Shown here in pieces: positions 13,477 through 15,867 of a stretch of DNA of 23,343 bases. The DNA is from a virus (Duplodnaviria; Heunggongvirae; Uroviricota; Caudoviricetes). The translations under genes were made by a program, and so were the position numbers. The stretch lies in the IMG/VR virus record IMGVR_UViG_2531839529_000008; one strand, written 5' to 3'. The notes under the pieces were generated by a model, which worked only from the letters and a program-made list of their open reading frames with translations, was not told the DNA's origin and ran no database searches. Numbering within the stretch: the stretch's first letter is position 1; each line of letters starts with the position of its first letter.

Positions 13477-13917
13477 ATGAAAAAACTAACCTTTGAAATT
13501 CGATCTCCAGCACATCAGCAAAACGCTATTCACGCAGTACAGCAAATCCTTCCAGACCCAACCAAACCAATCGTAGTAACCATTCAGGAACGCAACCGCA
13601 GCTTAGACCAAAACAGGAAGCTATGGGCCTGCTTAGGTGACGTCTCTCGTCAGGTTGAATGGCATGGTCGCTGGCTGGATGCAGAAAGCTGGAAGTGTGT
13701 GTTTACCGCAGCATTAAAGCAGCAGGATGTTGTTCCTAACCTTGCCGGGAATGGCTTTGTGGTAATAGGCCAGTCAACCAGCAGGATGCGTGTAGGCGAA
13801 TTTGCGGAGCTATTAGAGCTTATACAGGCATTCGGTACAGAGCGTGGCGTTAAGTGGTCAGACGAAGCGAGACTGGCTCTGGAGTGGAAAGCGAGATGGG
13901 GAGATCGGGCTGCATGA
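13477..13917 (+). CDS. ninB: NinB (146 aa)
   Basis: Internal start MKKLTFEIRSP of track ORF 13459-13917; recognised as lambda NinB. Confidence 0.9.
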   Translation: MKKLTFEIRSPAHQQNAIHAVQQILPDPTKPIVVTIQERNRSLDQNRKLWACLGDVSRQVEWHGRWLDAESWKCVFTAALKQQDVVPNLAGNGFVVIGQSTSRMRVGEFAELLELIQAFGTERGVKWSDEARLALEWKARWGDRAA

Positions 13918-14420
13918 CTATCAAATCAAATACGCCAGCACACGACAAGGACTGCTGGCAAACGCCGCTTTGGCTTTTTGATGCACTGGATATTGAGTTT
14001 GGATTCTGGCTGGATTCGGCAGCGAGCGACAAAAATGCTCTGTGTGCTCACTGGCTAACTGAGGCCGACGACGCGCTCAATTCTGAGTGGGTAAGCCACG
14101 GTGCAATCTGGAATAACCCACCGTACAGCAATATCAGGCCGTGGGTGGAAAAAGCTGCTGAGCAGTGCATACAACAGCAACAGACGGTAGTTATGCTTGT
14201 GCCAGAGGATATGTCAGTCGGATGGTTCAGCAAGGCTCTGGAGAGTGTCGACGAAGTTCGCATTATCACTGATGGACGGATTAATTTTATCGAACCATCG
14301 ACAGGGCTGGAGAAGAAGGGAAACAGCAAAGGCTCCATGCTGCTTATTTGGCGACCGTTCATCAGTCCTCGACGGATGTTTACTACTGAAGTGGTCAACA
14401 AAAACTGGCCACCGAGTTAG
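13914..14420 (+). pseudogene. Phage Dam-like DNA N6-adenine methyltransferase gene interrupted by IS911 at codon 158; native remainder lies at 15640-15694
   Basis: Start overlaps the ninB stop (ATGA); NPPY motif at WNNPPYSN; the reading frame runs into the IS inverted repeat, adding a 12-aa IS-encoded tail; joining the flanks by hand restores a 175-codon ORF whose TGA overlaps the ninE ATG. Confidence 0.65.
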
Positions 14421-15235
14421 AGTTTTTTCCAGTATCGATTTTCCGATTCGTTTGGTGGTAACCCACCATTATATTCGTGCGGTCTTAGTGCGCTGTAATA
14501 TCCAACGATATAGTCCGTTATTGCGTGAGCTGCATCGCTGAAGCTTACATAGCCCGTCGCCGGCACCCATTCGTTCTTCAGACTCCTGAAGAAGCGCTCC
14601 ATTGGGCTGTTATCCCAGCAGTTTCCACGCCGACTCATACTCTGCCTGATCCGGTATCTCCACAGTAACTGCCGGAACTGCCTGCTCGTATAATGACTGC
14701 CTTGATCGCTGTGGAACATCACCCCGACGGGCTTACCACGGGTTTCCCATGCCATTTCCAGTGCTTTCATGGTAAGCCTGCTGTCCGGCGAGAACGACAT
14801 GGCCCAGCCCACTGGTTTTCTTGCGAACAGGTCGAGAACAACGGCGAGGTACGCCCAGCGCTTACCCGTCCAGATATAGGTCACATCACCGCACCACACC
14901 TGATTTGGCTCGGTCACGGCGAACTGCCGTTCAAGGTAGTTAGGGATAGCAACATGTTCATGACCACCACGTTTATACCGGTAAGTCGGCTGCTGACAGC
15001 TGACCAGCCCCAGCTCTTTCATGAGTCTGCCAGCAAGCCAGCGCCCCATCTGGTAGCCTCTCTGGGTTGCCATTGTGGCGATGCTTCTTGCTCCGGCAGA
15101 GCCGTGGCTGATGCCATGCAGTTCAAGTACCTGGCTGCGTAATACAGCCCGTCTGCCGTCTGGCTTTTCAGGACGGTTTTTCCAGTATTTGTAGCTGCTG
15201 CGATGGACCCCGAACACATGGCAGAGAGTGGCCAC
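14417..15235 (-). CDS. IS911 OrfB (integrase/DDE catalytic domain), expressed as an OrfAB fusion by -1 frameshifting
   Basis: 272-aa track ORF in the -1 frame relative to orfA; typical IS3-family transposase core. Confidence 0.88.
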
Positions 15236-15261
15236 AGGATAACGCGCCCTGAGTTTCCCGA

Positions 15262-15564
15262 TTATCGAGAACTGTTCAGGGAGTCTGACATCAAGAGCGC
15301 GGTAGCCTTTTTTAATATTTCATTTTCCATTTCAATACGTTGTAGCTTTTTCCTGAGCTCACGGATTTCAATTTGTTCCGGGGTAATGGGGGAGGCTTTT
15401 GGTGTTTTTCCCTGCCGCTCATCACGTAATTGTTTCACCCATCGCGTCATTGTGGAAAGGCCGACATCCATAGCGCTGGCTGCATCTGCCACGGTGTAAT
15501 TCTGGTCAACGACCAGTTGAGCGGATTCGCGTTTAAACTCTGCGCTGAAATTTCTTTTTTTCAT
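15262..15564 (-). CDS. IS911 OrfA (100 aa, HTH)
   Basis: [49 protein letters not shown]... recognised as IS911 OrfA; slippery heptamer A-AAA-AAG at comp 15307-15313 near its 3' end. Confidence 0.9.
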
Positions 15565-15690
15565 TATGGCACCTGTGTTGTTCTGAGGTGAGCATATCAC
15601 CTCTGTTCAGGTGGCCAAATTCAGTAAACCACAACATACCGTATCCAAAGCGGCATTGATGGCGATCGGGCAGGGCGTCAGGAGGGCGGC

Positions 15691-15867
15691 ATGAGGCGAC
15701 AGCGACGAAGTTTCACCGACATCATCTGCGAAAACTGCAAATACCTTCCAACGAAACGCTCCAGAAATAAACGCAAGCCAATCCCAAAAGAATCTGACGT
15801 AAAAACCTTCAATTACACAGCTCACCTGTGGGATATCCGGTGGCTAAGATATCGTGCGAGGAAATGA
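15691..15867 (+). CDS. ninE: NinE (58 aa)
   Basis: Hand translation [58 protein letters not shown]; below the track cutoff; recognised as lambdoid NinE. Confidence 0.75.

Follow-up and report, generated by a model that had tools for sequence, protein, structure and literature searches.

A complete copy of ISEc52, an IS911-like element of the IS3 family, interrupts the 3' end of a Dam-type methyltransferase gene in a prophage nin region. We consider it probable that this ISEc52 insertion inactivated or weakened the methyltransferase, that Q and the late genes are still activated, and that the cost to the phage is small. The insertion itself is an ordinary event. The stretch of DNA analysed, hereafter the window, is 23,343 nucleotides long and contains the element with the following boundaries:

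14384..14386, no strand: left copy of the target-site duplication, TAC (a single TAC is present at empty sites)
14387..15636, minus strand: ISEc52 (IS3 family, IS911-like), 1250 bp, transposase pointing left, antisense to the pR operon
14387..14413, no strand: right terminal inverted repeat (IRR) of the inverted-repeat pair, tip TGAAGTGGTCAAC
15610..15636, no strand: left terminal inverted repeat (IRL), TGTTGTGGTTTACTGAATTTGGCCACC on the IS strand
15637..15639, no strand: right copy of the target-site duplication, TAC

The sequence-only reading took the element for a full-length 1250-bp IS911 with a 3-bp TAC duplication on both sides. Length, boundaries and duplication were borne out, but the IS911 label was not, as the element is 100% identical to copies annotated as ISEc52, the name that NCBI gives to them. 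For IS911 in the strict sense we asked for at least approximately 95% nucleotide identity over the full length (the ISfinder convention) together with IS911-type terminal repeats. The window element is 93.9% identical (76 differences) to an IS911-annotated copy of E. coli EC12 and 95.2% identical (1239 aligned bases) to the IS911 of phage Sf6, and its left repeat is divergent, with 5 mismatches to that of IS911 within the first 11 bp (positions 3, 4, 9, 10, and 11), which places it outside strict IS911. Judged by these comparisons, the element is ISEc52, IS911-like rather than canonical IS911, a name that rests on comparison with annotated IS911 and ISEc52 copies.

The terminal repeats are imperfect and 23–27 bp long, with 5'-TG at the start and CA-3' at the end; on the IS strand, the two ends read TGTTG... 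and ...CTTCA. The usual left tip of both ISEc52 and IS911 is TGAAG, whereas that of the window copy is TGTTG, with TT rather than AA at positions 3 and 4. Apart from this difference, the copy resembles the many NCBI-annotated ISEc52 copies in E. coli genomes and plasmids, with 100% identity over 1246–1250 bp and a common length, ORF layout and 3-bp duplications. Canonical IS911 of Shigella dysenteriae is the model element for IS3-family transposition; it has TG...CA ends, makes 3-bp duplications and encodes OrfA (100 aa), OrfB (299 aa, from AUU) and, via an A6G site, OrfAB (382 aa). The window element has the same organisation, and the first 40 bp of its right repeat are identical to those of IS911-annotated copies. 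Compared with the 1249-bp IS911 copies of EC12 and Sf6, however, a one-base difference in an A-run alters the C-terminus of OrfB. The window element shows these hallmarks of the IS3 family: a length within 1.2–1.5 kb, imperfect TG...CA repeats, a 3-bp duplication, and orfA and orfB in frames 0 and -1 with an A6G site. The transposase genes are arranged as follows:

15262..15564, minus strand: orfA, 100 aa, helix-turn-helix (HTH_Tnp_1, Pfam)
14417..15316, minus strand: orfB, 299 aa from ATT, rve (DDE integrase core, Pfam)
15307..15313, minus strand: A AAA AAG programmed -1 frameshift heptamer, IS positions 324–330, within the orfA/orfB overlap

That both reading frames are intact and that the heptamer lies at 15313–15307 agrees with the earlier reading. 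A conceptual -1 slip yields an OrfAB protein of 382 aa that spans nearly the whole of NF033516, the NCBIfam IS3-transposase model (positions 1–368 of 369; score 380 bits, cut-off 160 bits), showing, as far as coding sequence goes, that the transposase is intact. As a candidate for a frameshift-stimulating RNA structure, a branched fold is predicted to begin 6 nt 3' of the heptamer; its energy is no better than that of shuffled sequence (z = -1.09). Users of public annotations should be aware that intact ISEc52 transposase genes carry the NCBI label of 'frameshifted' pseudogene.

The element lies between ninB and ninE, within a gene of which two parts remain:

13477..13917, plus strand: ninB, its stop overlapping the methyltransferase start (ATGA)
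13914..14420, plus strand: truncated methyltransferase ORF of 168 aa, made up of native residues 1–158 and 10 IS-encoded residues, then TAG
15640..15694, plus strand: orphaned methyltransferase 3' end (third base of codon 158, codons 159–175 and stop)
15691..15867, plus strand: ninE (Pfam NinE, 3.4e-42), with its own AGGAGG Shine-Dalgarno 6 nt upstream

The insertion point is past the second base of codon 158, and the 10 added C-terminal residues come from the right terminal repeat of the IS. In silico removal of 14387–15639 restores an ORF of 175 codons with NPPY at residues 68–71 and a TGA that overlaps the ninE ATG (ATGA at 15691–15694); in the window, ninE is now split from this upstream ORF by the IS. 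The restored ORF matches Pfam PF05869 (Dam) at 4.5e-65 with 218.9 bits (cut-off 28.1), and TIGR01712 over the full model (1–165 of 165) with 266 bits (cut-off 97). It can also be aligned from end to end to phage methyltransferases, so that the refuting condition set in the earlier reading does not apply, and its proposal of an NPPY methyltransferase gene of 175 codons broken in codon 158, with a stop overlapping the ninE start, stands. The restored protein is identical at 174 of 175 positions (99.4%) to orf32 of phage VT2-Sakai, which is presumably the enzyme called M.EcoVT2Dam in the literature. A published report (PMC6602927) describes GATC specificity for M.EcoVT2Dam. By homology, the target would be an orphan GATC-type methyltransferase gene, the orthologue of M.EcoVT2Dam: the Stx-phage enzyme, a phage N-6-adenine-methyltransferase (PF05869, TIGR01712), is likewise encoded between ninB and ninE and carries the NPPY motif, and differs in that the window gene is broken at codon 158.

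To judge what the truncation removes, we used an AlphaFold2 model of the database homologue P0002 (98% identical to the restored protein; pLDDT 90.9) and an alignment of 102 sequences. Among the 102 homologues, N68, P69, P70, and Y71 are invariant or nearly so, and conservation reaches 90% or more at L164 and G168. The model predicts a strand at 155–160 and a helix at 161–174 with high confidence; the cut is inside this last predicted beta-strand, half of which is lost, and removes the conserved C-terminal helix. Residues 5–148, the region common to distant homologues, are kept in the 168-aa product, which still matches TIGR01712 over 1–155 of 165. A sequence search of the PDB gave no relative of the methyltransferase, and a fold search with the model returned generic N6-adenine methyltransferase folds only, the best being PCIF1/CAPAM (TM 0.54–0.60). 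Because the cut falls within the last predicted beta-strand and the conserved C-terminal helix is gone, the product with residues 1–158 and its 10 foreign residues is likely to be inactive or weakened.

The excised 2-kb stretch matches, in one piece and with 100% identity, empty sites in 4 complete E. coli genomes (ATCC 43896, 025542-1, ESBLEC_MG48, and L3_E36_ETEC), and relative to strain 025542-1 the 23-kb window is 100% identical except for the IS, with flank identity extending over 22 kb. The perfect 3-bp duplication, the empty-site flanks and the 100% identity of the IS to other copies support a recent, simple insertion, as had been proposed, by what would be ordinary transposition: an ISEc52 copy would have entered the methyltransferase 3' end by the IS3-family route, making the 3-bp duplication in the process. 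An IS-end-like motif at 14346–14356, ATTTGGCGACC, resembles the inner IRL and was considered as a targeting signal. It was dropped because the match, 10 of 11, is one of 36 pairs listed, and because neither the side nor the distance of the motif suits end-directed insertion.

The insertion is carried by a lambda-like E. coli prophage integrated at att-lambda. Since the part of this prophage beyond cos and Nu1 lies outside the source contig, its completeness is judged from relatives only. Between its att cores, the prophage of the relative 025542-1 measures approximately 46.2 kb, and would measure approximately 47.4 kb with the IS; as regards packaging size, this is below the 48.5 kb of lambda. 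The nin region is dispensable, as known from the nin5 deletion. Pfam matches and the annotation of the isogenic relative agree with the earlier reading that the IS is in the pR operon, with ninB on one side, ninE on the other, and Q downstream. The transcriptional control of this operon involves the following features:

9596..9868, minus strand: N antiterminator gene, 90 aa (Pfam PF25694 N_peptide, 2.1e-15)
9977..10017, minus strand: nutL, boxA GGCTCTTTAACA and boxB CCCGCCGAAATGCGGG, by sequence reading
11104..11146, plus strand: nutR, directly past cro, boxA TGCTCTTTAACA and boxB CCCGCCGAAATGCGGG as in nutL, by sequence reading
13429..13460, plus strand: predicted tR2-like intrinsic terminator in the ren/ninB gap, an 8-bp GC-rich stem then TTTTATTT
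17003..17380, plus strand: Q antiterminator gene, 125 aa, approximately 1.4 kb downstream of the IS (Pfam Phage_antitermQ, 2.2e-51; annotation of the isogenic relative)

The boxB elements of nutL and nutR are identical and the boxA elements nearly so. With N, both nut sites, a predicted terminator ahead of Q, and Q at the end, the operon has the predicted layout of a lambda-type, N-antiterminated early-right operon. The intact N gene, nutL and nutR indicate that pR transcription is N-antiterminated, and the position of the tR2-like terminator upstream of ninB indicates that the operon would already have been N-dependent.

The sequence-only reading had suggested that the IS may be polar on Q and that the prophage may be impaired for late-gene activation. 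In its strong form, this means that pR transcripts end inside the IS, with no Q and no activation of late genes. IS insertions are classically polar via Rho, and from the new stop at 14420 to ninE at 15691, pR transcription would now run through the IS in antisense for approximately 1.27 kb, giving RNA that is not translated. On its plus strand, the IS is rich in C and poor in G at 14500–15100 (GC skew -0.17 to -0.26). Being C-rich and untranslated, the IS RNA is a plausible Rho substrate, and some residual polarity may persist. Strong polarity, however, seems unlikely to us, as N, nutL and nutR are intact and the polymerase already has to pass the tR2-like terminator. N-modified polymerase is known to suppress the polarity of insertions, and Adhya et al. 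are said to have reported such relief by N in 1974. In addition, terminator-like sites in the region are no more common than expected by chance (4 found, 4.0 expected), none in the IS being convincing.

Searches for other signals in and around the element gave little. An Rfam search of the window returned the cIII thermoregulator as its sole match, with none in or near the IS, and no plus-strand promoter-like sites were found inside the IS. A hybrid outward promoter formed from TTGACC in the right repeat was considered and rejected, given that the flank has no -10 element at a suitable spacing.

Phage Sf6 (NC_005344) provides a precedent for an insertion at this place and in this orientation. 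It carries IS911 in gene 54 (ninG; Dover et al. 2016, PMC5630979), between tR2 and Q and antisense to the early-right operon as in the window, with an AAC duplication. Sf6 is viable and grows lytically with the element present; its deletion leaves the timing and level of late transcripts unaltered and shortens lysis time, and IS911 lengthens the life cycle (PMC5630979). The 2 cases share a 1249–1250-bp IS911-type element in a lambdoid nin region, a 3-bp duplication and the disruption of a dispensable nin gene. They differ in the gene hit (ninG rather than the methyltransferase) and in the IS copy, which in Sf6 is 95.2% identical to that of the window and has the TGAAG tip together with a left repeat of the GCACAC form. 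Moreover, Sf6 is a P22-like, headful-packaging free virus, whereas the window belongs to a lambda-like cos prophage, and the N/nut specificities of the 2 differ. The intact N system, the upstream tR2-like terminator and the Sf6 precedent thus make a strong effect on Q unlikely, and the unchanged late transcripts of Sf6 argue in the same way against impaired late-gene activation. Since N, nutL and nutR are intact, RNA polymerase modified by N should traverse the IS, and given such readthrough, Q and the late genes would still be activated. By analogy with IS911 in the Sf6 nin region, the cost would not exceed a slight delay or modest loss of fitness, and lytic growth would be slowed modestly if at all.

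The longer life cycle of Sf6 with IS911 also bears on whether the insertion matters to its host. Arguing by analogy, one may suppose that it is non-neutral, that it delays or dampens the lytic programme, stabilises the lysogen and is retained in a circulating ETEC lineage, and that ISEc52 with the TGTTG tip is expanding in ETEC; we regard this as quite improbable. That selection itself has kept the insertion, which would modulate or delay the lytic programme or eliminate a phage Dam costly to the host and thereby favour the lysogen in an ETEC lineage, is very improbable. Besides the Sf6 life cycle, its support comes from recurrence: the insertion junction is found in 1 isolate assembly and several ENA metagenome samples, with one ENA junction contig differing at 3 of 613 bases, and the exact 168-aa truncated product is recorded both for GCA_000355175.1 and for ENA metagenome contigs. 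Such recurrence is, however, explained by clonal spread or by repeat sampling in one study. The insertion was not found in 5,426 complete E. coli genomes, GTDB representative genomes and JGI metagenomes contained no exact match to the right junction, and no signs of independent insertions at the methyltransferase site were seen.

The same metagenome contigs bear on whether an IS copy was misplaced into the contig of a draft genome during assembly. The source assembly is indeed a draft, in which the window forms the end of contig AQFF01000005.1, but the 3-bp duplication is perfect, both junctions are precise, and independent metagenome contigs share the left junction and reach up to 513 bases into the IS. 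An assembly artefact is therefore extremely unlikely. We keep to a genuine ISEc52 insertion that is probably read through by N-modified polymerase. Its significance is small, this being a clean, resolved IS3-family insertion in a dispensable prophage gene, with an empty site in near-isogenic genomes. It nevertheless joins Sf6 as the second natural case in which an IS911-type element lies antisense in a lambdoid nin region, and the pair could serve to gauge how far N-antitermination suppresses IS polarity. The junction can also be used as a lineage marker of the ETEC clone that carries the insertion.

In E. coli nin regions, all IS911/ISEc52 insertions that we found point the same way. We rejected this as an orientation bias because the search joins same-strand pieces only and would rank insertions in the opposite orientation low.

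The inserted copy would be a member of a TGTTG-left-tip sub-lineage of ISEc52 known from ETEC genomes. Among complete E. coli genomes, this variant is confined to 4 ETEC genomes (5 records). Identical copies with the TGTTG tip sit elsewhere at 4 loci, next to different 3-bp duplications (CAG, ATA, AAG, and AGG); going by these distinct duplications, the variant would be mobile.

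The IS that interrupts the phage methyltransferase gene is complete, and its boundaries and coding parts are as follows:

14384-14386 and 15637-15639: the two copies of the target duplication TAC that bound the IS
14387-15636, minus strand (transposase): the IS, 1250 bp
within the IS, minus strand: orfA, whose 100-aa product has an HTH_Tnp_1 domain
within the IS, minus strand: orfB, 299 aa, with an ATT start codon and an rve domain
inside the orfA/orfB overlap, minus strand: the heptamer A AAA AAG

The two ends of the IS make up an imperfect inverted repeat. If a -1 slip is assumed at the heptamer, the product is an OrfAB of 382 aa that matches the NCBIfam IS3-transposase model over positions 1-368 of 369 (380 bits; cut-off 160), and this full-length match indicates that the transposase is intact. 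The insertion point lies after base 2 of codon 158 in an ORF beginning at 13914, where its start overlaps the ninB stop (ATGA). With 14387-15639 removed in silico, the ORF again has 175 codons and ends in a TGA that overlaps the ninE ATG at 15691. The sequence-only reading, which had described a full-length IS with intact orfA and orfB, an A6G heptamer and a TAC duplication in codon 158 of a Dam-like gene running into ninE, is thus borne out by the sequence, the domains, the OrfAB match and the excision.

Its proposal of a recent, simple insertion holds as well. The excised 2-kb stretch is found as a single piece with 100% identity in 4 complete E. coli genomes (ATCC 43896, 025542-1, ESBLEC_MG48 and L3_E36_ETEC), where the empty site is annotated as 'phage N-6-adenine-methyltransferase', and 025542-1 is 100% identical to the entire 23.3-kb window, the IS excepted. 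No occupied site was found among 5,426 complete E. coli genomes, in GTDB representative genomes or in JGI metagenomes. The exact 168-aa truncated product is recorded in NCBI assembly GCA_000355175.1 (contig AQFF01000005.1), and several ENA metagenome contigs have the same product and the same left junction. Together, the identity of the empty sites and the recorded junctions show a genuine and recent insertion that at least one circulating lineage carries. One ENA contig with the same dam-IS junction (L013) differs from window 13827-14439 at 3 of 613 bases; the differences are due to assembly noise or else to slight divergence of the background that carries this same insertion.

The restored protein matches Pfam PF05869 (Dam; 4.5e-65) and TIGR01712 over positions 1-165 of 165, and has NPPY at residues 68-71, confirming a Dam-like methyltransferase. 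It aligns over its full length, with approximately 99% identity, to proteins of Stx-converting phages and phage mEp506, and is identical at 174 of 175 positions to orf32 of VT2-Sakai, which lies between ninB and ninE. The restored ORF thereby withstands the refuting check on full-length alignment that came with the sequence-only reading. We infer that orf32 is M.EcoVT2Dam of that phage, for which GATC methylation has been reported (PMC6602927). The present dam product consists of native residues 1-158 plus 10 added residues. An AlphaFold2 model built on 102 homologues (pLDDT 90.9) assigns, with high confidence for both, residues 155-160 to a beta-strand and 161-174 to a helix, so that the cut at 158 takes away the terminal helix along with half of the strand before it; L164 and G168 are kept in at least 90% of the homologues. 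No solved structure of this methyltransferase family was found by PDB sequence search or fold search. From the model, we infer that methyltransferase activity would be lost or weakened, against which counts that distant phage homologues align chiefly over residues 5-148, a region still present in the cut product. Two database clusters of 233-235 aa (P0001 and P0013; 41 and 12 member sequences) join Dam and NinE domains in one protein, suggesting that in some genomes read-through at the ATGA overlap has produced natural fusions.

The same reading had also suggested that the IS may be polar on Q and may impair late-gene activation, which is probably wrong. Transcripts from pR now have to extend over approximately 1.27 kb of antisense IS RNA that is untranslated and in part C-rich and G-poor; such RNA ordinarily invites Rho-dependent termination, making this stretch a plausible Rho target. 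However, the N gene is intact (Pfam N_peptide), nutL and nutR have common boxB CCCGCCGAAATGCGGG and boxA GCTCTTTAAC, and the operon is already N-dependent, since a tR2-like terminator that it must pass sits between ren and ninB. N relieves insertion polarity, an established point reportedly made by Adhya, Gottesman and de Crombrugghe in 1974. Intrinsic-terminator-like sites across the IS region show no excess over chance, and those within the IS are unconvincing, having no T-run.

A similar arrangement exists in Shigella phage Sf6, a viable lambdoid phage with IS911 in ninG, between tR2 and Q, its transposase antisense to the operon. Sf6 deletions that remove IS911 left the onset and level of late transcripts without obvious change (Dover et al. 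2016; PMC5630979), while lysis became faster and bursts smaller (PMC5630979). We regard Sf6, by analogy, as the most direct evidence against a transcription block by the IS. Given the intact N system, the tR2-like terminator and this precedent, we consider strong polarity distinctly unlikely and expect that induction would lead to Q expression, any delay or cost being no more than modest.

In the window, ninE no longer overlaps an upstream ORF but retains AGGAGG 6 nt before its ATG, and a search for promoters pointing out of the IS toward ninE or Q found none. The nin5 deletion shows that lambda can do without the nin region, which explains the tolerance of insertions there. Other IS911/ISEc52 insertions in database records are:

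L001 2026-3275: after ninE, E. coli CP52E, duplication AAT
L002 1503-2751: in ninB, EC12, with a deletion
L003 1501-2750: elsewhere in the dam gene, 1585m1, with a deletion
L015 3501-4749: in ninG, phage Sf6, duplication AAC
L016 3501-4750: in the ant region, Salmonella phage SEN22, duplication ATT

A common orientation of the E. coli nin-region insertions was rejected as a signal, being an artefact of search hit ranking. Nothing in the case departs from known biology.

While the sequence-only reading was right on the insertion and the gene, its name for the element, IS911, is imprecise. The IS is 100% identical to many copies annotated by NCBI as 'IS3-like element ISEc52', compared to 93.9% (76 differences) for the IS911-annotated copy of strain EC12 and 95.2% over 1239 aligned bases for the IS911 annotated in Sf6. 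The left terminal repeat is TGTTGTGGTTTAC in the window, TGAAGTGGCACAC in IS911-annotated copies and TGAAGTGGTTTAC in ordinary ISEc52 copies, the tip at 15632-15636 being TGTTG instead of the usual TGAAG. Within complete E. coli genomes, TGTTG is common only to 5 records from 4 ETEC genomes (H10407 p948, ATCC 43896, 504838 and L3_E36_ETEC). Four such copies, one per genome (L005-L008), lie at different loci with their own 3-bp duplications (CAG, ATA, AAG and AGG), so the variant is mobile, and changes at tip positions 3-4 are compatible with transposition. The window matches ETEC-associated genomes, and its IS was plausibly acquired from this ETEC sub-lineage. NCBI labels every ISEc52 copy examined (L001, L003, L005-L008) a 'frameshifted' pseudogene, which we take to be an annotation artefact, because the standard slip gives a full-length OrfAB and the sole frame difference from 1249-bp IS911 copies, annotated 'programmed frameshift', comes from a single base of an A-run close to where orfB ends. 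That base seems to be the cause of the label.

The window carries part of a lambda-like prophage inserted at att-lambda:

1331-1345: att core GCTTTTTTATACTAA, adjoining ybhC
23050: cos GGGCGGCGACCT

In order, its genes are int, xis, exo, bet, gam, kil, cIII, sieB, N, cI, cro, cII, O, P, ren, ninB, dam, ninE, ninX, rusA, ylcG, Q, cargo genes and lysis genes. The window is the final 23,343 bases of draft contig AQFF01000005.1 (97,401 bp) and stops just past cos, with the first 105 bases of the Nu1/nohD gene included, the prophage remainder lying beyond the contig end. The relative 025542-1 has a complete lambda-type head and tail gene set, and its prophage spans approximately 46.2 kb between the two att cores; the IS would bring this to approximately 47.4 kb, still shorter than lambda itself and thus no problem for packaging. 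The spot between Q and the genes for lysis, which other lambdoid phages use for toxin or porin cargo, contains a lipocalin (Blc-like) gene (17536-18060, minus) and a YbgA-like gene (18253-19212, plus) whose domains are 2-thiouracil desulfurase and DUF1722. NCBI annotation of the identical relative marks small signs of decay in a prophage that otherwise looks complete: upstream of the holin gene, a helix-turn-helix gene with a frameshift (approximately 19564-20294), and between ninX and rusA the remnant of a DUF1364 gene (approximately 16332-16421). The window's only curated RNA family match is the lambda cIII thermoregulator (8251-8309, minus; Rfam RF01804, 88.5 bits).
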